Translations under genes and position numbers: made by a program
Shown here: in pieces, positions 16,800-63,689 of the stretch
Layout of the letters: each line of letters opens with the position of its first letter
Numbering within the stretch: the stretch's first letter is position 1
Assembly: GCF_036321535.1 (NCBI RefSeq)
Contig: NC_087442.1
Span: 68,882,001-68,946,000 of the forward strand
Direction: 5' to 3'
DNA: 64,000 nt
DNA from: Camelus dromedarius
Taxonomy: Eukaryota
The notes under the pieces: generated by a model
The model's input: the letters and a program-made list of their open reading frames with translations, nothing else
The model's database searches: none
What the model was told of the DNA's origin: nothing

Positions 16800-16911
16800 A
16801 TGGGCTGGTTCGCTAGGATTGTCTGTCTTTTCTGGGGAGTGTTACTTACAGCGAGAGCAAACTATCAAAATGGGAAGAACAATGTGCCAAGGCTGAAATT
16901 ATCCTACAAAG
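16800..16911 (+). CDS. SEMA3A: Semaphorin-3A coding exon 1 (signal peptide and N-terminus), 37 codons + 1 nt, phase-1 intron follows
   Basis: Translates to MGWFARIVCLFWGVLLTARANYQNGKNNVPRLKLSYK, nearly identical to the recalled human SEMA3A N-terminus (MGWLTRIVCLFWGVLLTARANYQNGKNNVPRLKLSYK). Kozak-like context gcagcATGG. Strong donor AAAG|GTGAGT at 16911/16912. Confidence 0.98.
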
Positions 16912-24617: not shown

Positions 24618-24766
24618 ACAGTAACCTATAATGAAAAAGAATATGAAAACGAATAAACATATGTATATGTATGACTGAAACATTATGCTGTACACCAGAA
24701 TTTGACACAACATTGGAAACTGACTATACTTCAGTTGAAAAATTAAATTAAAAAAAAACAACAAAA
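24618..24766 (+). mobile_element. Heavily 5'-truncated L1 3' UTR with A-rich tail
   Basis: cagtaacctataatgaaaaagaatatg...tgacacaacattggaaactgactatacttca plus an A-tail. Shares its terminal motif with the L1 at 62748-63689. No clear TSD. Confidence 0.85.
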
Positions 24767-32553: not shown

Positions 32554-33216
32554 GTAACTAGAGGAGGGAAAGAAATGAAGCAAAATAAAATAAATCAAAG
32601 ATGACTATTTAAGCATTAATTTACCATCTTTTCAATGAAGAAAAGCACAAGGCCATATTTTGTTAGACTGAAATCAGGTCTGTTATACTTCTAATTTGAT
32701 CATAATAAAACAAAAAATAAAACCAACCAAACTTATTCTAACATATTTACTTGAGAGAACAAAGAAACAATCATTATACTAAGTATCTAAGTAAAATGCA
32801 CCGATATAGAAAAGAGAGAAATAGTCCCCAAACCATGGCTCTACAAGCCATCCTTCATTTAATAGGCACGTTCTGGGCCAGGGTCTCTGACAACCTGGGA
32901 CAGGGATAAAATACACAGTCCCTGCGTGTAAAGACCCTTCCCTCCAGTGTCAACCCAGATTGATTAGGGTTTAGTATATCATTAAGCTACTTTAAAAAAT
33001 ATGGAAGTTTTAAAAAGTAGAATTAATTCCACAGTCTACTAGACAAATGCTGGTTACCATTTGGAGTTTATTTCCTAGAGCAATAGTGGAGGAGTGTGAG
33101 GAGAGGATGAATGACTGGGAGTGGAGGAGTTAAGCAGAGAAGCGTTGACTCGGCTGCTGGATGTGAAAGTGCTAAAAGGGAGACAGATTCTTCAACTCGG
33201 ATGCATGTGTGTGCAT

Positions 33217-33240
33217 GTGCGTGCGTGCGTGCGTGCGTGC
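33217..33240. repeat. (GTGC)6 repeat within an alternating purine-pyrimidine tract
   Basis: Read directly. Flanked by atgcatgtgtgtgcat and ttgcatgtatgtgtg. Confidence 0.9.
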
Positions 33241-33869
33241 TTGCATGTATGTGTGGTATTATTGCTATTGTTGCAGTTTGATCTAAGGTTTTACTGTAAC
33301 TCTCATTACTTGATACATGTTATTATGCCCTTACTTCTTTAAATACTGTTCTCTTTCTCATCTAGAAAACGTTTTTTTAAAACGTATAAACTCATTTCAA
33401 ATGGACAGAAATGTACTAAGTATTACTCTCCACCAGTCACTATAATGACTGCTAGGAATAGGAAAACCTATAGGGTTAATCCCTGTTCTCAGGAACCTTA
33501 ACATAGTGCTCAAGAAAGTATACCACCTAATGATAAGGCAGATTGGGCCATCATTTAGATAGAAAGCAAATGCTCTGAAGTTTAGAGGTGACAATGGGTT
33601 GTTAATTATGGTAGGATTGCTATTGAGCTAAAGAAAATATATTTAACAAGGAGTGAAAATTAATCTGGGCCCATAAGGATGAAGAAAGTTTTGCAAGGAA
33701 GAATGGGGAAGGCCTTTCTGGTAGAAGCACAGTGTGGAGACATGAGGCATTAATGTGTATAGCTTATCTAAGAAGCTGCAAAATTAATCTTACATGGAAT
33801 GTAGTAACCAAGAGTGAGGCAGTGGGAGCCAGTTTGAAAATCTGAGTATGTAGGTGATCATTGATTCTT

Positions 33870-39648: not shown

Positions 39649-39775
39649 TTTTTTGCAGGGGGTAAGATAATTAGATTTATTTATTTGTTTATTCTTAGAG
39701 AAGGCCCTGGGAATTGAAGCCAGGACCTCATGCATGCTAAGCATGCGCTCTACCACTTGAGCTATCCCCTCCCCC
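39649..39775 (-). mobile_element. tRNA-Ala-derived SINE, camelid Vic-1 type
   Basis: Minus strand reads GGGGGAGGGGATAGCTCAAGTGGTAGAGCGCATGCTTAGCATGCATGAGGTCCTGGCTTCAATTCCCAGGGCC, then an AT-rich (AAAT)n tail, CCCCC and an A-tail. A box intact, B box with one mismatch. TSD ctggatgtaccaac (39635-39648) / ctggatgtgccaac (39775-39788). Confidence 0.88.
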
Positions 39776-41020
39776 TGGATGTGCCAACCTGAATTCGTAT
39801 CAACTTGCGTTTTGTCAGGTCACCTTCTCTCTGACTCCTCTTATCCTCCACCCTCAGTGTAAGGCACCATGATCCATGCAGCTGAGTTGGGAACTTGGGT
39901 CATGCTGGGTTTCTCCATTATATAAAATGGATTTGATTACAGAGTTCCAATAAATAAATAGAAATTTTATAACAATTTTAAAAGGTATTTCAGATGGTTC
40001 AATGGAAGGCTCTGACTTTTCTATGATTGGTAATGATCCCTTAAAAGATGATATGACAAAAGTAGGCCAAATACCCTAACTGATGATATGGAAACGTACA
40101 AAATAAGCATAATGGTTGGTCAACTCACAAAATATAGACAAATTCCGATTCAAAATATAAAAGGGTGTGTTTGATACTTGAAAGAAATGTAGTGAAATCT
40201 TACTTTTGATCATTTAGCTTCCTTCCTGCACCATGGAAGTTATTAGATGCTCTTTTTGGCTTTGATTTTTGTTTGAAGCAGCCTAATCATGTTCCCAGGT
40301 AAGCAGAATAAAATATAATGTTTGGTTAAAAACATTTTAAATGTTTAGTATTAAACTAATTTGATCCTCTCTTAATATGATACATTTTCGTATCAAAACA
40401 AAGTATAAAAATTATATTTTCTTCATTAAATTTTTGTTTATTTTCTGTTTCATTTTGTTTTCTACAAATCTTATATGTAGTTACTGTTCAGCTACTTAAG
40501 ATATTATTTATCTAGATTTATGTGATAAAACAAAGGAAAACAATTAAAGAAGATACCACTTACTGACATTAAATTAATTGACCATATTAATTGCCTAAAT
40601 TGCTATCTTTATGTTATTATTTTGTAACGAATGAAATCTTCTAGTGATTTTGTGTATTTAAAGGTAGAACACTTTCTAATCTTTGCCAAAGGTGTTAATT
40701 TACATATTCATATGCAATTTACATAATTTAAAAGTTTCGCCTATTTCAAAGTAATATACATCCCTCAGATCTGCACAAATTGTCAATGAGTAACTGCAAA
40801 TCTCTTCCCACTCTCCAACCCAAACAAGAAAATACAATTTATCTGTCTCATTAAGCCCACTGCAGAAAAAAACCTTTCCCTTTCATGTGATGTCATATTT
40901 TAATACTGGATCGTCATAACTTGAAACTGAACTCTATGTTCATTTTCCTTGAAAATTTTTTCTTGCTTCAGAAATAAGCAGTATGTGTTGATTTTGTATT
41001 CTCATTGAAATAACTATTCA

Positions 41021-42422: not shown

Positions 42423-42696
42423 TTCCTTTTTTAAATCATTTTTATTGAAGTTCAGTTTACAATGTTGTGTCAGTTTCTAGTGTAGAGCAGAATGTTTCAG
42501 TCATACAAATACATACATATATTCTTTTTCATAGTCTTTTTCATTATAGGTTACTACAATATATTGAATTTAGTTCCCTGTGCAATACAGTAGAACTTGC
42601 CATTTGTCTATTTTATATATAGTAGTTAGTATCTGCAGATCTCCAGCTCCCAATTTATCCTGTCCCCACCCCCTTTACCCCTTGGTAACCATAAGT
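42423..42696 (-). mobile_element. 5'-truncated L1 3' UTR with target-site duplication
   Basis: tttttattgaagttcagtttacaatgttgtgtcagtttctagtgtagagcag... is the reverse of the L1 terminus seen at ~63620-63680. TSD tttgtgattgcattattt (42405-42422) / tttgtgattgcactattt (42697-42714), one mismatch. Confidence 0.9.
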
Positions 42697-43274
42697 TTTG
42701 TGATTGCACTATTTAATTTTATTTCCCAAGAAAGCATCATTCTTTTTGTGATTGATTACTTAATATTTATGGATCTTAGTTCCAATATCTAGAGACTAGA
42801 AATTATAATAATTCCTATTAAAGAACAGTAAACTAATTATAGTTAATTTAAAAATCCTTCACAACCACTTATATGTTGCCCCAGTAAACAAAGATTACAA
42901 TGAAGAGCATTTATATAGATACATAAATGATAATCATTATCTGTGGTATCATTACAGTGGTAATCCAATATGAAGTATTCTGTAGGCCAACTTATTAATT
43001 TTATTAATTATAAAATTGAAGCCTAAGATATTTCATTGGCTTTTGCTCTTAAAGAGTTGTGGCAGAGAGAGGAAGAGGGCCCAGGGCTTGTATCCACATA
43101 CAAGTTTTTTTAATGTTTTATGATGTTCCATTATTTTCATAGCTAATGTATGTAATTGAGAAACTCAATGCCCCTATTTTCTTCTACATACTGAGAAATG
43201 TCTTTATTAAATGGGAATATTATTTATGATTTATAATAGCTGTTATTTTTATCACAATACTGAAAGTAGTTGAG

Positions 43275-47030: not shown

Positions 47031-50000
47031 TTATCTTGCTTAGTACTCAGAACTTGAGTTTCTAAAGGACTTACTATCAATTGCATTAATTAATCACTTG
47101 TAGTCCTTCGACTTTGGTGTGTAACTTCTAAAGCAAGAGCTCAGCCTCCCTGTAGCAGCTCTGCCTAAGTATTAACAGGAGTTCCCAGAGGCTGCCTCCC
47201 TGCATTTCAAAAACAAATGTAATCCAGCTAGCGTGAACTATCAACCAGGAAATGCTGTACTCAGCTGTGCACCTCTATTCTCCTTGGCCTTTGTGTCACT
47301 AGGTAGACATGGCTACAACTTTGCTAAGCCACCAAGTACTGAGACCTCTTTCTCACTCCTCAGCAAGGTATTTTCTCTAAGATCTTGAGGTGCCCAAGCT
47401 CTTTGGTTTGTTTTGGGTAGGCTGAAAATAATGGTTCCCTCCCAATCTAACATTCTGCTATAGAAGGAGTAAAGCTTCTACCTGGATTTTGAAAAGCATT
47501 TTATATGAAACACATCTCAATTTTTTCTTAAACCTTTCTTTTTCTAAAAAATCAATTCCAGTTCCAAAGGATATGGGCCAAAAGACAAATTGACCACTTA
47601 CTGTACTTCGAATCATATTCAATTTTTATCCCTGAGATTTGTTGTGAAGTTTTCCACTCTTGTCTCTCTCTTCCCAGATCTTAAAACATGAGGGGTCCCC
47701 AACTCCAATTCCTGAAATTTAGCCAAGTCTGGATCTCATGTTTGGCTCCAACTGGGTGTGCTGGCTACGATTCCCCCATGCCTTCCCACCCTCCTCACAT
47801 CTGCATCTGTAAAATCCTGCTAGAGTATACATAAGGCCTTCACTCTACAATCGACTCACAGATACTAACAGCATCTAATTCTTCCTATAGTGACCCTTTT
47901 TTATTAGAGAAAAATGAACTTAATAAATGACATTTGGGAGCAAACTCCATGTATACAGGAGCTTCTGCACAGTAATACAGAAGTGAATAATTAAAATATT
48001 GTACTTATAGTATCCAGTATGCATTACATGAAGCTAAATAATCTTGCTCTTTCAGTAACATAAAACTCAAAATATAAACACTTTATTCCAAGGAAATCCA
48101 GTAAGACCATATGTTAAATGCTGTGTACTTAAGCAGGCTAAACTCTCAGGACCATAATTAGGGTCAGGATTAAAATTAGTACTGAGCCAAGCAGTCTGAG
48201 GGTATATTGATGCTATTTTTAATGATAAGCTTATATTGATGTGCTAGAAAAATGAAGCATTAGTAGCATTAAATGGGTTTAAATATTAATTCTTCTAGGG
48301 TATTTAGAAATAGAATATCCTGTTCCTATTCTTTCCTGACGATTGGCTTGTCAACATTTTAATTATCTCTTTGTTTTTGATCTTCAGTAGAGTCTATATG
48401 CAGAAGTATTTTGCATGTGAATGAGCATGCCTGTCCTACATCTGCGCTGTGCCAGTTCCAAAATTAGACCATAAAGACCTAGCAGTTCTCGCCATAAATC
48501 AAGGTATTTCTACAACTTTCAAAGCAGGGAAAGATATACACTGTTCAGTGAAATCATTTCACACATCACTTCAAACCACCTATTTCATGGGCTTGCCAAC
48601 TACTTTTACAGTTTCATAGAGTAAAAGCCTTCTATGATTGGTTCTCGAGGGCAGTGGAGCTGGGACCCTCGGCGTCCCACGGGTGTGCTTGGCGTGATTT
48701 GTGCTGCAGGCTGTGCTTGTAGTGTAAAGATCATGTGTTCACAGTGTGATTTCTGGATTGAATTAAAAAATACTTCAATAAGAGCATTCTCTTCTTCTAC
48801 TCATGCCAAAGGACAACTTTTGGTCCCAATTCTGGTAGATAATTCTGTTGGAGCAAGCAGAAAGAGCAGTTGTGACAAGGGGCCGTTGGGAACTCTGACT
48901 TCAGACAGCCTTGATGCTTGCTAGCTCGGAGGTCTGTGCCGCCTCTCTTTGCTTCTTTGAACAGTAGTATTCTTGTCTGTAAAACTGATCTAACACTGTG
49001 TACCTCATGAATTTATTATAAGGATAAAGCATATAAAGGATGTGAAAGAGCAGCTAACGCAGGATATAACTAAATTAAAAAAATTTTTTTCTACCCTACG
49101 AAATGGTGGATGGTTTAAAATATTTCAGTACCAATATTGGGTGCAATTTTGTTTGTGAGAATAAATATGGGATGGCTCCACTCCTTAAGAATATATTTTT
49201 ACTCTCAGTTTACCGTAACTCAGATTTTATTAAGACCTCGTAGCTATCTCCTGAGGTTTAAAAAGCCAGAAATTATTTCAGAATAGGGTTGGATCATGAA
49301 TCAACCAGATTTTGAGGATCAACTTACAATTTTCATGCTTCTTTATTCTTTGGTTTATGAAAATTGATGCTTTCTATTGTGGGATTCTTGTTCTCATGGT
49401 TTCATTGTTTCTTTTCAGGCTTTCGAATAGCAAAACGTCCAAATTATGAAACTCACAATATTAAACCCATTAGAATACAATTGCCCGCACCCAGCTCGCA
49501 CTTCGGTCATTTCGCACTTCGGTCATTACCTACAGCTAATGGTACAACTGGATCTTTCCAGTCCTCAGATTACTCGAAGCAGTAATACTTAGATTACATC
49601 AAGAGCTAAAAGAGCTTAGCCGTGTTTTTTGACAGTTTATTCTGTGATTGAATTACAGTATCACTAAGTAATGCACTTCCAAACTGCAAATTGCCTTAAT
49701 GTTGGAATGCTTTTCTCTTACTGATGTGTAGAGGTGGTGTTCTAATTTTATTTCCGCCACAATTACTATATCAGCTCCCATGGAGAGACAGCAAAGGTAG
49801 ACTGATAGAGCTTCATGGAGGAGTTTTGCATCCAGTGTTTTACTATTTAAGAGGATCTATGTGTAATAATTCCTAAGGAAAAATACATTTGTAAAGAGTG
49901 CTTCCAAAAACATCACCCTATTTCTTTTAAATTACTGTAAAATAACAAAGGTGCTGCAAAAGAGTTTTGTTAGTTTTTAATTTGTTCTCTTGTAAGTTGT

Positions 50001-51462: not shown

Positions 51463-54114
51463 CTATTAAAGTAGGTAAGAATGTGAAACACATCTTTTAA
51501 CTTTTTTCCTGGCAGATCAGCTCTCCACAGCCCCCTTGACCTTGTTAGATATTAGTCAGCATGTGATCATCAACAAAACCTTGAATGTGAATTCTCAAAT
51601 TAGCATTCAGCGGGCCCTAAAACTTAGCAAGACTTTTGAGATCCCAACAGATGTTATTCATCTTTCAGTTGTGAAGTATGGTATTTCAAAAGATGCAGAT
51701 ATTTTATAGTATGGAAAGTTATTAATACTTAATATTTATACTTGCGTTTTTGCAGGTAAACATATATGTTGTGAAATATTGTTATAAGGATTTTGGAGAA
51801 GGAGAGATACCAGTGTGAAGGAAAAGTAAAATATTTTAATACTTAAAGGAATGTGAATGATCAGCATCCCTTCTAATGCCATTCAAAAGAATACATTTTT
51901 GTCCATGTATACATTCCAGGTAATGTTGAAATTACATAGAGTATTCAATCACTTGCTCAAAATGTACTGATCTTGAAAATTACAATGCTGATTGTTATTT
52001 TGGGGGTAATTTAAAGAAAAAAACAAAGGATTTACTACAAGAGTTTTAAATCAGTGCTGGCATGCATAATAAGACATTTTAAGTCTGTTTAGTCACCTTT
52101 TGGTGGAAAGTTTAGTAACAACTAAAGATTTGGGTTTGATAATGTTATACAGAGTTCCTTTAACAAAAGAATTAGAGACATTCTTCAAAGGATTAACATT
52201 TTATGAGTCAGGATGGAGGACTATGACTTCCATTCAAATAAATATATAGGGAAAAAATCCTATGGCTAGAACACACAGCTGGTGAAAAACATAATATTCC
52301 CACATACATTTCATGTCTTTTTGACATGTGTATCTTCACTGTATACAGACTTATACACGTGCAAACTTTCCCACAGAAACATGCCACATACGTAGAATTG
52401 GAATGTGTATTTTACAAATAATTCCTTTACAGACAATCCAGGCAATAAATACTAAGTGAAGTGATAAAACTATTTTTTTTTCTGTAGCTCACTCAATTAT
52501 GCAACACTGATCTAAATCTTTTTTTTTCTAATAGATTATTTTCAAAATGCTTTCAAGTCATAGAATGACCCAAGAATGCTATCGCAGTTCTCCCGATAAT
52601 ATTTTATTTAGTGTCACATTTTCAGGGATTTATGATTACCTGTCATAAGGAAAAGTTTGGAAAGACTACTTTTTTGCTATGAAGTTTATAGGTGGAGACT
52701 TCAAACATGAATTAAATCCAAATAATTAAGTAGGTGTCATAGCATGAGCAAAAATGGCATACTTTCATCACCCTAGGAAATGAGAAGGGGTGAACCTCAT
52801 CATTCTTTTTTTTTCCTGGTGTATCATGTAAATATTGGTAACTCTTGATTCCAGAGGATGTGATATTAAAAAGAGAGAAAAACCACAATAAAATTTTTTC
52901 ATTATAATTTACAAAATTCCAATTGGAAAGAATTGTCTAAAAACCTTAAAAAAAATAGAATCACCATAACATCTTCAGAAGGAAAAGATCTTAAAGATAT
53001 TCAGATATTACATCATTCTTTTCCTTTTAAAGTTTGCCTGAGAAATATTTAGGGGCAGGAATTTTACATGTGGTTTAACAGACACAAAGAAAGACACAGA
53101 ATCATGCCAGGAGTTCCAGCATAAATCAGATGGAGCATTAAATATGGTATTCAGAAAAAAAAAAACTAAGCTTTCTGAATATTTCTTAACTCTACAGTTA
53201 ATCTAGATATAATTGAAAATTATATTTTGTCGCTTAAATAAGAATAATATTACTAGTACAATATTAACACAATCTCAGCAGATCTCATCAGCAGATAGGT
53301 TACATGCTTCAAAAGCTGTTTTATTGGATGTGTTAGAGCACAAATATGTTGAAAACATTTTGACTTTGACTTTCCTCATTCTCCCCTACATAATTAAAGT
53401 AAGCTAATGAGTGTAAGTAAGAAACACATATTAAAGCCAAGAAGACTGTATTTGGTAACCCCTGAAGGCAATATTTGATACAAGTTGACAAAATTTCTAA
53501 TCTCTTACCCAAGAGAAATCCCAAAGTGGAAAAGACGGCCTACTTGAGGTCCAGAGTTTTTGTTTGAGAAGAATAAGGCACATCTGCTCAAAGCCCATCC
53601 ACTTCTTAAAATGTAGAATCTCTGGACTAGGAAGCCACAGAGTTGATGAAAGCTAAAATATAGTCAGAAATAGTCCCAGAGACTTTGAAGTAACTTAAAA
53701 AAAAAAAAAAAAGCTGTGAAAATCTAATGGGAATTGAGCACATTTGAGTCTAATTAAAAGAGACACTATTTTATGTAGTTTTGGATATGCTGATCCAGCC
53801 ATAGGAAGAATCCTGCATAATGAAAATCTTGCATGGGGAAGAGTGTTGATAGATAGGTCTTGAGTTGGAAGTATGAGGTCACTGGTTTATATCCTGAGGA
53901 GAAAACCTGGACATGTTCCATGAAAAACAGCTGCTTTTGTAAAATGTAATGTCTTGCACACAAGTGGAATTAAACTAGCTACTGTCATTTTAAGGATTCC
54001 ACAACTCTCAAAGAGAGGTGGACATTTGGACTCAAGCAGTTCAGATTTGCTGCTTCAGCATGAAAGTATAATTTTCCTTGAAATCAATCAGTAATAGAAA
54101 AAAATACATTTCAG

Positions 54115-54445
54115 TTAGAGTATATACTTTATGACCTGAGTTATTTACATTTATTGACACTTGCTTTATGGCTCAGAATGTGGGCTATCTTGTGTCATGT
54201 TTACTTGAAATGAATGTATATTGTATTGTTGTTTGGTAGAGGGTTCTACAAATGTCAGCTAGGTTTAGATGGTTGATAGTGTGTCTAAGTTTTCTGTATC
54301 ATTACTGATTTATATAAATCATATATATATTGTATCAATTATTTGAAAAGGATTGCTGACTTCTCTGAATATAAAATATATTCTGTGTAGTTCTGTCAGT
54401 TTTTGCTTTTTGTATTTTGAATTCTTCTTACTGGGTGAATGAACT
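54115..54445 (-). mobile_element. Old L1 ORF2 endonuclease-region fragment
   Basis: Minus strand reads caaaaactgacagaact...aacttagacacactatcaaccatctaaacctagctgacatttgtagaaccctctaccaaacaac...aagatagcccacattctgagccataaagcaagtgtcaataaatgtaaa, the L1 EN-domain signature. Heavily decayed. Confidence 0.85.
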
Positions 54446-54940
54446 AGCAGTTGTAGACCTTCTGGCTTAAGGGGCATGGGGCAAACCCACTTATGTGAGT
54501 AGGCTGTGAATGAAGCAGAGGGTGGCCAACAGGGACTGTACAAAGAACAAGAAAATAGCCATCTTGAGGGGTCTGACCAGACACTGACCCTTTCGACCTT
54601 CTCAGATTGAGTGACCCCAGCTGGGTCCTCTCGTTGCCTGGTGCCGCTTGCCCCAACTGAACGAGATCAGGTTCCGCAAAGAAAAGAGAAATGTTACTTA
54701 CTGGGCAAAGAATGGGGAAGGGAGAGCTCATGCTGGAAAGACCTCTTCTACTCAGGGGATGGAGGCAGGAAACATTTAAAGGATAAGAGGTGGGTACCAT
54801 CAGAACTGATGAATTCCAGAACCCGCCAGAGCATGAGCGGTCGTCTGGTCCCCTTTGCACGTGGCACAAATTGTGCAAATCCCGTTTGGACAGAGATCTC
54901 AGCATGGTAAGGAGGCAAAGGCAGCTTTCAGGCACTGTGG

Positions 54941-55320
54941 GTCTCGTCTGCGCAGGCGCTGCGCCGGTGGTCAGGCTGGAACCGGTTCAGGGCGGTGCCT
55001 GTCGCCATCTTGGCCCTTTCCAGCCGCAGCGGGTCGGCGGTTTTGTTTCTGTGGCGTTTGCTTTATAAGCTATCACAGTTGTGGGCGTAGACTGAGGGAT
55101 TGTGGTGTGGAAAAGAAAGTAGCTTAGTCGCCGTACCGGTGTGGGTCTCTTCTGGGGACAAGCGGAGGAGAGCCCCAGGCCGTTTCCTGGTGGGTAAGTA
55201 AGTCACCTGCCCCAGCTGGACCCTTTTCGGGGCCCCAGGGACCGTCTCCCTGCACCCCGGGCTCCGGGCTCCGGGGACGGCCTGGTGGAGACACGTGACT
55301 CGCAGGGCCACGAACGGAAC
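54941..55320. promoter_or_regulatory. CpG-island-like core with NRF1, GC box, YY1, TATA-like and E-box motifs (orphan promoter-like element)
   Basis: I count 29 CpGs in these 380 bp. TGCGCAGGCGC 54949-54959 (NRF1), GGGCGG 54990-54995, CGCCATCTTG 55003-55012 (YY1, reverse), TTTATAA 55062-55068, donor TGG|GTAAGT at 55193/55194, CACGTGAC 55292-55299. Confidence 0.55.
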
Positions 55321-58300
55321 AGGTAGGTGGTTGTAGAGATCCCAGCACCGGCAGCAGCAGGTGCTCAGAACGTGCCTAGGGATTTGGAAGCTTCGCCCTC
55401 GGGAAGCCTCACCGTAGGGGTTTTTTTTTTTGTACTGCAAGTCCTTCCCCTGCCAGGGGCAACACTCTGTTTAAAGAGCGTGTCAAGGAAGCCGGCCAGC
55501 ACCCTGGGGTGATGATGAGGGGTCCCAGACCTTGGTCTAGGCCAGGAAGAGGCCCGTAGATGTGAGTTTTCGGCCTGGCTTTGAGACCCAGGCACTGCCC
55601 TCCTAGCTCGCGGGCCCGGCTATCATCAGCCGAGCTGCCCGTGACGCTCACTTCCACACGCCGCTGGCAGGGACAGCCCTTTTCCTTCAGAAAGACCTGC
55701 CTGGCATGAGGATTCTGAATGCAGTGATCAGTTAGCCGTGTCTGCCAGCCGTGTCTGCCGTGGGCGCGGGGGCAGGAATGGCTGCGTATGTTTCTAGAAT
55801 TTGTCATCGCTCATCTAAAGCCTGATCAAGGTTTTCCCCTAGAGATTGTGCTCACTCAGAAAAGCATCAGAAGACAGAGATGTCAGGTGGTGGCCACACG
55901 CCACAGCCCTGTGGATGCACCTGAGAACCCAGCTGTCCTCTGTGCGTGAGAGCAGGTACCCTCATCCACTGAGCCACCCCCAGGAAGGCTCCCCACCCCC
56001 ACCCACCAGGACAGAGGACACCCTCCTTGCCCTAAGGCCCTAAGGAGTAATGATACACATTACAATATATACAATAGTTACACATAATGTACCATCTACA
56101 AATAAGAGTTGGCCAAAGTGTAACCAAAAAACGAAACAAAAATCAAAAACAAAAAAAACTGCCTCTTGAAACTTGAAGAAAACGTAACTTATGTTTTATT
56201 TTTTAATTCTCGGCATAATGAAATTCTAGGAAACATCCATATTTTTTATTCAAACAATGGCTATTAATCAGCTTTAGCTGAATCATGTATTAAATATCTT
56301 TTCACTAATTTTATAACCTTTTTCTGTGTTCAATTTACCTTAAATAGGTCATTTTTCTCTAATTAGGAAATTTATATTTTTAAAATTAAGTTAAAATTAT
56401 ACTAAGGAATCTGCTGAAAATATGGGGCATTGCTATTATAATATTGTTACCCTACAATAATTAAAGGAATTGAAGGTAGCACTGGAGCACAAAGAAAGGA
56501 ATTGGTCAGCATTTATTTTTCAGAATAATTAGCCTACATAGATAATGTTTGTGATTTCAAAGTAACTATCACCAATTTTCCCCAAATATCTTAATATCCC
56601 ATTATTTATTCATGAGTTATATTTTTAATAATCAAGGTCTGCCATTAAAATGATAGCATCTCCCTGAATATTCCTTGAAAATGGAAGTGCTTTAATTTTT
56701 TTAAAATGGGTCTATGTCATACAAGGTTGGTAAACACTGGATTTAAAAATTTCCTTAAGCTAATTTCCCTATAGCTAGACCTCCAAATGTCTTTAATGTC
56801 TTAATTTGAAGTATAAAATAATAAAATATGCAGTATTCTCTCAAACTCATTTTCTCATGGGATCCTTTATTCCCTGAATTTCCATTAGCAGCAAAGGAAA
56901 CTAGTGTTTTATAAAATATATCAGTATAGGATCATTCATTCATTCATCAGTATGTATATTTGCTTTCATTAGGCAAAGAGACAGAGTCAGCAGTTCTTTG
57001 TATACAGATAATGTCAAGTAAATATCACAGGAAGTATTTTCTAACTTTTGTTTGGAATATTTAAGATTTTACATCTCCATGCTTTTCCTGTTTAGTTTTC
57101 TGTTTTCTAACTACAAGAAATACAGTAGAAGGTAGGAAAAAAAAGATTTAATGATTAAAATTAAATTTCACTGAAGTAACATTTTGAACCTTGACTAGAG
57201 TATTTACATTCAGAGGAAAGTTCATGATAGAATGATTTAATTAACAATACATTAAAAAACGTTTGGTCACAAAGATAGTGTAAGGCCAAGTATAAGAATT
57301 CATTTAAGCAGAGATTAATTTTTTTATGGTGCTTCTTTTGGGAAGAAAATACACATTTTTTGATCCCCATTTTGTCCTCACAGGAGTCAAAGGTAAGAGT
57401 CCTATGATTGCTATAATTCTGCTGCAATGTATATTAAATCAATGTGTGTACTTTTCCTGAATGTTACAAGTCAACTACTGATATAGTTCAAATGTGCTCT
57501 CTCTTTGATGTCTACAAAGATGATAACCAACTGCATTGATATGGATGATGTGCCTTTCCTGATAGACCCTCTTTTGACTTAAAGTCTGTTGATAATTGCT
57601 ACTTCTGCAATAAGAGCATTTTCAACTACCTGAATCAAGACTTTCATAGCAATATCACTTACTGGTTCTTGACAGCTAATGAAGTGGCAAAGCAAGGCTG
57701 ATAAACTCCAGAGCCTATCAGGAGAGTTGAGTGTAGCATTTTTTAGATTCTGATTTACTAAATGAGGTGGAAGTCATTATATTCATCAAACAAACTCAGC
57801 TATGAACTTTTAAACTAATTTCTTGATTTTTTTAAGTGGAAGTAATTTCTCCTTATTGAGTGCTTAGAAATGATAAAACAACAGTTACAAGTGGGAAAAG
57901 CTAGAAATTTCTTTCTCAATTTTGTAATTATACTAGTTTCTACCTCTTTTTGAATTTTATCAGCAGTGGCATTTAGCCTAATAAGAAACAAATGCCTGTT
58001 TTAAATAGCATCCTTACAAGAAAATGTAAAATTAAGATAAATTTTAAAAATCTTGGAAATCCTATTAAAATGCATTACTGTTTAGGAGCAAAATACATAA
58101 CCTCAACTTTTATTTTCAATTATTTAATCCAAAGTTTAGTAATAATAAATAACATTATAAAGATGTGATCAGTGAAGATAATTTTTTTTAACTATTTACA
58201 TGCAAAATATAAGCAAGTATCAGGAAAATGAAAGAATTAAGAAATCAGTGACCTTAGGTAATGTTGCAGGACTCATTGCTCACATGGAACTGCTCTGGGG

Positions 58301-62747: not shown

Positions 62748-63689
62748 AGACCTAAACAAGCAATTCTCCTAGGAAGACATACAAATGATCAATAGGCACA
62801 TGAAAAACTGCTCAGTATCACTAATTATCAGAGAAATGCAAACCAGAACTAAAATGAGGTGTCACCTCAGACCAGCCAGAATGGCCATCATTCAGAAGTC
62901 CACAAATGACAAACGCTGGAGAGGCTGTGGAGAAAAGGGAACCCTCCTACACTGCTGGTGGGAATGCAGTTTGGTGCAGCCACTGTGGAAAACAGTATGG
63001 AGATTCCTCAAAAGACTAGGAATAGACTTACCATAGGACCCAGGAATCCTGTTCCTGGGCACATATCCAGAAGGAACCCTACTTCAGGANNNNNNNNNNN
63101 NNNNNNNNNNNNNNNNNNNNNNNNNNNNNNNNNNNNNNNNNNNNNNNNNNNNNNNNNNNNNNNNNNNNNNNNNNNNNNNNNNNNNNNNNNNNNNNNNNNN
63201 NNNNNNNNNNNNNNNNNNNNNNNNNNNNNNNNNNNNNNNNNNNNNNTTGTAGCAACATGGATGTTCCTGGAGAATGTCATTCTAAGTGAAGTAAGCCAGA
63301 AAGAGAAAGAAAAATGCCATATGAGATCACTCATATGTGGAATCTAAAAAAAAAGAAAAGAAAAAGAAAAATGAATATAAATCCGAAACAGAAACAGACT
63401 CATAGACAGTGAATACAAACTTGTGGTTGCCAGGGGAGAGGGGAGTGGGAAGGGACAGACTGGGAGTTCAAAATTTGTAGATACTGACAGGTATATATAG
63501 AATAGATAAACAAGACTATACCATAAAGCACAGGGAAATATATACAAGATCTTAAGGTAGCTCACAGTGAAAAAGAATGTGGCAATGAATATATGTATGT
63601 TTATGTATAACTGAAAAATTGTGCTCTACACTGGAAATTGACACAACATTGTAAACTGACTATAACTCAATAAAATAAAATTTAAAAAA
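62748..63689 (+). mobile_element. 5'-truncated L1 (ORF2 C-terminus + 3' UTR + A-tail) with a perfect 19-bp TSD
   Basis: Encodes [16 protein letters not shown]...[29 protein letters not shown] and ...ATWMFLENVILSEVSQKEKEKCHMRSLICGI* (stop 63345-63347), the L1 ORF2 C-terminus. Two in-frame TAG stops. TSD aaggataaagcccacctga at 62729-62747 and 63690-63708. Confidence 0.97.
63090..63246. other. N-run, 157 nt, inside L1 ORF2
   Basis: Undetermined bases. Confidence 1.

Follow-up and report, generated by a model that had tools for sequence, protein, structure and literature searches.

How did a block of GC- and CpG-rich DNA, approximately 1.7 kb long and closed at its right end by an A-rich tract, come to lie in the first intron of SEMA3A in Camelus dromedarius? 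We analyzed the 64,000-nucleotide stretch that contains the block, referred to here as the window. A first-pass annotation, made from the letters alone, had described a foreign-looking cassette within AT-rich DNA and had listed a captured promoter among its possible sources.

The block and its setting in SEMA3A

The base composition of the block was initially compared to that of the rest of the window. The segment 54446-56125 contained 65 CpGs at a GC content of 0.56, and among 988 other windows of 1680 bp the CpG count reached at most 29 and the GC content at most 0.44. When extended to 56160, the segment had 66 CpGs, a GC content of 0.55, and a CpG observed/expected ratio (o/e) of 0.50, compared to a GC content of 0.35 and an o/e of 0.24 for the whole window. 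The 29 CpGs counted earlier between 54941 and 55320 were found again. The best GC change points were at 54431-54458 and at 56040, with GC content stepping sharply from 0.29 to 0.50 at the left edge and from 0.58 to 0.31 at the right edge. Between them, CpG o/e was uneven, at 0.10 (54446-54606), 0.55 (54607-55000), 0.68 (55001-55400), 0.55 (55401-55800), and 0.16 (55801-56040), which is the profile of an island with shores. Under the formal CpG-island rule (at least 500 bp, GC content at least 0.55, and CpG o/e at least 0.65), 54683-55502 qualified as the sole island in the window. The looser 200-bp rule was also passed by 33041-33277. The block was confirmed as a real feature of the sequence.

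The host gene was identified from its coding exon 1, whose translation matched Semaphorin-3A in PDB at 16 of 18 residues (E = 6e-4). A motif expected in SEMA3A exon 2 was not found on the plus strand within the window. With exon 1 upstream and no exon-2 motif on that strand, intron 1 is a fair label for the site of the block, and the setting proposed by the first-pass annotation was retained. The decayed L1 endonuclease fragment that it had placed on the left flank was likewise recovered, as a weak minus-strand match at 54188-54298 (best E = 0.018); seven of the eight hits were named LINE-1 or ORF2 and the eighth LR1. The interval 54100-54445 had 0 CpGs in 346 bp. When the part next to the junction (54322-54444) was searched alone, there was no hit, and no continuation of the L1 fragment was seen to the right of the block in translations, which were compared by eye only. 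Inverted repeats shared by the L1 fragment and the block's right end were considered and rejected, as they were not colinear and were attributed to low-complexity chance.

Elsewhere in the window, a tRNA-derived SINE-like element was found on the minus strand at 39660-39790 (tRNA-like part, 39699-39771), present in a single copy and presumably resembling a camelid SINE. An L1 ORF2 C-terminal piece was found on the plus strand in the region 62773-63420 (E = 2e-36), beyond which came a gap and then sequence resembling a 3' UTR, with an A-tract inside it; pieces related to it were present at 24620-24758 and 42427-42698. A perfect 16-bp tandem duplication occupied 49496-49527, in a locally CpG-richer patch. 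The features of the block and of its host gene are collected in Table 1.

Table 1. Positions of the features discussed, in window coordinates
Feature	Position	Strand	Remarks
SEMA3A coding exon 1	16800-16911	+	112 nt; ends in phase 1; GT donor follows
Decayed L1 ORF2 endonuclease fragment	54100-54445	-	ends at left edge of block; outer limit approximate
Left end, 161 bp	54446-54606	.	GC 0.50; CpG-depleted, 1 CpG
Dispersed repeat piece, putative ERV1-type LTR layout	54607-54998	-	R and U5 with part of U3; right-hand limit (in U3) not fixed
CpG-island core	54683-55502	.	500-bp windows with GC >=0.55 and CpG o/e >=0.65
NRF1-like (54950-54959) and YY1-like (55003-55011) motifs	54950-55011	.	once each
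GC-rich segment, resembling 5' exons and first intron	55000-56040	+	donor-like sites at 55194, 55198, 55323, 55562
Candidate 95-nt exon	55691-55785	+	SEMA3A sense; pyrimidine-tract acceptor and GT donor
AT-rich end, 85 bp	56041-56125	+	variant poly(A) hexamer (56101-56106); A-tract follows after 19 nt
Interrupted A-rich tract	56126-56159	+	27/34 A (79%); either a degenerate poly(A) tail or an A-rich site of priming

Composition of the block

Chance reading frames within the block served as probes for noncoding relatives in protein collections, whose coverage of eukaryotes is thin. With the 180-aa frame at 54447-54986 (minus strand), a word search yielded 40 candidates, of which one protein was near-identical; three hits, two of them diverged, came from exhaustively searching 1.84 billion representatives; and a profile search retained 4 of 1865 candidates, one of which was new. 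In a frameshift-tolerant alignment, P0003, a Logan contig, matched 54982-54653, and the ENA contigs P0004 and P0005 matched 54993-54623 and 54998-54676, respectively. These alignments scored 78-118 bits, compared to 17-22 bits for three shuffles of each, and identity was 73-74% where codon positions were fully determined. The three unrelated contigs matched the repeat piece only, with ends at 54623-54676. None of them matched 55000-56200, and none matched 54446-54606 on either strand; the match between P0004 and P0005 themselves broke off at the position corresponding to 54623. Since these DNA relatives shift frame and have a common end, 54623-54998 is, judged from these alignments, a dispersed repeat with diverged copies and a common boundary. 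It spans approximately 0.38 kb on the minus strand, or about 376 of the 1680 bp of the block. As only this part matches diverged repeats, the block is a composite, in which a repeat piece, an island, splice-like sites, and an A-tract lie between sharp edges.

The layout of 54607-54998 would fit the U3-R-U5 order of a putative ERV1-type LTR on the minus strand. CpG o/e within the repeat piece was uneven (0.33 versus 0.70). At the presumed poly(A) signal of R, which is expected some 40-90 nt from the LTR end, the residues of the relatives were compatible with the hexamer, their codons being unseen, and the hexamer in the copy within the block was noncanonical. Two candidate pairs of TG...CA ends with a 4-bp target-site duplication (TSD) were found (1095 and 1282 bp), which is about the number estimated to arise by chance, and there were none with 5 to 6 bp. 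No second LTR, TSD-backed end, internal sequence linked to a primer-binding site (PBS), or coding remnant was found. Of the 33 listed reading frames, 24 were searched against Pfam and none had a match at the cutoff, in agreement with the earlier statement that no frame resembles a known protein. Other provirus features, namely, a long direct repeat or a relative among viral contigs (0 matches; 0/75 and 0/6 confirmed), were also not found. A PBS near 54635-54655 was discarded, as the match of P0004 continues to 54623, and a twin-priming inversion of 54446-54606 received no support from the probes, which cover part of the repeat only. The 180-aa and the 133/135-aa frames were rejected as real proteins, as they had no Pfam or Atlas support and their relatives shift frame. 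A literature search on all six LTR-motif terms combined returned no paper. The first-pass annotation had reported neither an LTR pair nor a PBS; the absence of a paired LTR stood, but the dispersed LTR-like repeat had been missed. For the full-length match to a known repeat that it had named as decisive against its reading, a partial match was found, with the right 1.1 kb searched for near-identical copies.

No diverged relative was found for 55000-56040 by the word search, which finds mainly close copies and yielded a 98% copy as the one match among 42 candidates. Across the whole block, the plus strand had four copies of the splice-donor motif GTRAGT, compared to 0.94 expected (P = 0.013), and the minus strand had one, so that the motif favored the strand that bears the A-tract; the NRF1-like and YY1-like sites were expected 0.002 and 0.02 times, respectively, in 1000 dinucleotide shuffles; all three motifs were picked after the sequence was read, so these values flatter. 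NRF1- and YY1-like motifs also occur in LTRs. The acceptor pattern of the candidate 95-nt exon was not enriched over shuffles (P = 0.13), and if this exon were placed after SEMA3A exon 1, the phase would go from 1 to 0. Within the exon, 55734-55759 is a perfect tandem duplication of 13 bp. Taken by its motifs, 55000-56040 looks like the 5' region of a gene. It did not have the makeup of a processed pseudogene, since donor-like sites and intervening DNA were retained and no coding homology was found.

The A-rich right end was present as first described and is one of two A-tracts of its grade in the window. Its distance from the right GC edge is 86 nt, and the chance that a tract would fall within 100 nt of either edge of the block was approximately 0.006, given two tracts per window. 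The other tract presumably lies inside an L1 3' UTR, so A-tracts need not be tails. The poly(A) hexamer preceding the tract was noncanonical, with 19 variants tried and no canonical one present. No exact repeat of more than 8 bp was shared by the two junction zones, which upholds the earlier report of a missing TSD. The longest, an 8-mer at 54489-54496 and at 56187-56194, 27 nt beyond the A-tract, was at the level of chance (0.18 expected). Position 54495, at this 8-mer, is where the records P0001 and P0002 both stop; the 8-mer could be due to chance or could mark the true limits of the insertion.

Searches of other collections gave eight Rfam matches, none at the gathering score, and a metagenome motif scan gave 21 loci, none matching beyond 20-24 bp. 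A vector or microbial origin was rejected: a single 60-bp plasmid match (E = 3e-4) was found in 72,556 records and none in 50,697 phages.

Other copies and sequencing runs

Three Logan contigs (1506, 916, and 1053 bp) carried a slightly different version of the block. Over 1134 nt, seven substitutions were visible, of which the one that falls on a called start is less certain, along with two small indels. The divergence of this version was approximately 0.9% (interval, 0.4-1.9%). For camel species, the available part of PMC7305198 gives a nucleotide diversity of 0.05-0.09% and approximately 2.1 million fixed differences; a between-species distance was absent from the corresponding part of PMC6946651. 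At assumed distances of 0.2-0.4%, the probability of at least seven differences was 0.001-0.19, depending on the CpG boost. On these figures, the diverged version may be either a donor paralogue or a sister-species orthologue.

Sequencing runs were then compared by means of 168 sampled words, all of which lay inside the block and spanned neither junction. Every word was contained in 14 of the 24 listed runs, 13 of which were flagged as possible sources of block DNA and one of which (X14) was not. This demonstrates that the block exists as one piece, and does not thereby fix its location; internal chimerism of the block is unlikely. Six runs, five of them RNA on record and one RNA by guess, held from 0.33 to 0.71 of the words, and a divergence of 1.1% at full coverage would leave 0.71 of 31-mers, which is the share held by X15 and X16. 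The shares of the RNA runs were rejected as a measure of expression, since they come from contigs, of 178 to 847 million letters, that may carry genomic DNA; three of these runs (P7 to P9) may also be one campaign. The four remaining runs (X21 to X24) held 0.00 of the 168 words. They were discounted as evidence for an empty allele because their kind was not recorded or the run was tiny. X21 to X23, which held none of the words, are large runs labelled organism A.

Origin and possible effect of the block

We tentatively favor, at a little short of an even chance, the explanation that the block is an L1-mediated copy of unspliced RNA from the CpG-island promoter of another locus, inserted with a target-site deletion. 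At the donor locus, an antisense LTR piece and the adjacent DNA would have formed an unmethylated promoter island. A transcript from an upstream start, of the orphan-transduction type, would have crossed this island and ended, or been primed, at the A-rich tract, and ORF2p would then have inserted the copy in SEMA3A sense, deleting target DNA. Such a deletion would explain both the missing TSD and the L1 fragment that ends at the left edge. The CpGs would have persisted because they were intact on arrival, a few million years ago, and because germ-line methylation of the copy is probably low. The L1 route is favored by the sharp edges, the island-with-shores profile, the A-tract near an edge, the hexamer 19 nt upstream of it, and the donors on the strand of the tract, and is opposed by the missing TSD, the noncanonical hexamer, a tract that is only 79% A, and the failure to find a donor locus or to see an empty site. 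In addition, retained introns are not expected of a transcript from the block's own promoter, so the upstream start must be assumed. The captured promoter proposed in the first-pass annotation fared well on its CpG profile, splice donors, and A-tract and poorly on its donor, for which no locus was found.

The events invoked are known ones, as far as the available portions of the sources extend: L1-type insertions whose tract is preceded, at 10-30 nt, by a poly(A) signal (PMC5110952); poly(A)-ended insertions that lack a TSD and delete DNA at the target site, as well as internal priming and orphan transductions (PMC4859970); and germ-line hypomethylation of a retrotransposed CpG island (PMC4509998). 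From the same excerpts (PMC5110952, PMC4859970, PMC4509998), the block resembles L1 orphan transductions and class 1 templated insertions in consisting of noncoding DNA other than L1, in its A-rich 3' end with a poly(A)-like hexamer 10-30 nt upstream, in lacking an L1 body, and in placing a new CpG island at the target. It differs from them in its missing TSD, noncanonical hexamer, and interrupted tract. Class 1 insertions are characterized by a TSD, tail, and signal, and class 2 insertions by none of these, in the text available from PMC5110952. Because no TSD of at least 5 bp was found at both junctions, the block was not filed as a class 1 insertion. Like the L1 insertions with target-site deletion described in the accessible part of PMC4859970, it has a poly(A)-like end, no TSD, and an old L1 apparently cut at the 5' junction; in contrast to these, its deletion and endonuclease site are putative.

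A promoter region copied at the DNA level, as a break-repair patch (a class 2 templated insertion) or a small segmental duplication, with the A-tract already present at the breakpoint, would account for the missing TSD and would retain introns and upstream promoter DNA without an extra assumption, and class 2 insertions and small segmental duplications share with the block the lack of a TSD and an unspliced genomic content. The ends of P0001 and P0002 beside the recurring 8-mer could then mark a boundary between two copies, although the 8-mer by itself is at chance level. Class 2 insertions, as described in the part of PMC5110952 that was available, are without a poly(A) tract or signal, whereas the block has a rare A-tract and a variant hexamer at its 3' end, which may be templated; we consider a DNA-level copy unlikely but deserving of weight. 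We would say much the same of the proposal that the whole block is one young camelid ERV1-related repeat, either a long LTR or a short nonautonomous element, that is CpG rich through youth. The left part is indeed a dispersed repeat, for which the ERV1 (MER4-group-like) LTRs of Laurasiatheria and the Repbase LTR*_Vpa camelid families are putative relatives, and it resembles ERV1-class LTRs in its dispersed copies, identity of approximately 73%, and common end; its U3 end is not fixed, as the probes are ORF fragments, and the motifs of the block are also found in LTRs. The available parts of the literature contain the camelid family name LTR2_Vpa (PMC6726744) and describe large ERV1 clusters of short, ORF-less elements in alpaca (PMC8605555). 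Set against this, the repeat piece makes up less than one-fourth of the block, with no paired LTR, PBS-linked internal region, coding remnant, or TSD-backed end, and its uneven CpG loss is unlike that of a uniformly young element. Word searches with two frames found one near-identical cluster each (1/40 and 1/42 candidates) and no spread of 80-95% copies, in a database that is thin on eukaryotes.

Two other explanations were given less weight. The block could be a native orphan CpG island, in which an old LTR insertion stayed unmethylated and retained or acquired G+C where it lay, as did its flank, through GC-biased gene conversion. The shores of the CpG profile suit such an island, as does a repeat piece that retains CpGs at approximately 27% from its relatives, but these may be other species or subfamilies, so the 27% need not be the age of the copy; the sharp GC steps, the L1 fragment that ends at the left one, and the A-tract that closes the right end make this origin quite improbable. 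Finally, a real piece of another locus could have been joined into the contig by misassembly. The assembly is gapped, with eight runs of N in the window, and the presence of all words in a run does not place the block, since the query did not span the junctions. We nevertheless judge misassembly very unlikely, as the block is enclosed by 21.7 kb of unbroken sequence (41395-63089), no repeat links the left junction to the rest of the window, and the complete word set was present in 14 of the 24 listed runs, though all but X14 of these are flagged as possible sources.

If the L1-mediated copy is the correct explanation, a promoter island that was moved to a distant intron would provide a dated natural test of the keeping and loss of CpGs. 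We regard the block as a further case of an already known kind of event, and the copied block is most likely inert. Among the literature matches listed, the portions available mentioned neither a camelid SEMA3A insertion nor a SEMA3A promoter in intron 1. We think it very unlikely that the block is a live, lineage-specific promoter in SEMA3A sense or the source of a frameshifting 95-nt exon. Were it such a promoter, the donor at 55194 would splice to SEMA3A exon 2, which presumably begins with an in-frame Met, yielding a camelid-specific transcript without exon 1 and a semaphorin 3A without its signal peptide, that is, a nonsecreted isoform. Were the 95-nt exon instead included in the normal message, it would shift the frame and tune the dose of SEMA3A. 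Only if it alters SEMA3A, a vascular and axon-guidance signal, in one lineage would the block be of greater importance.
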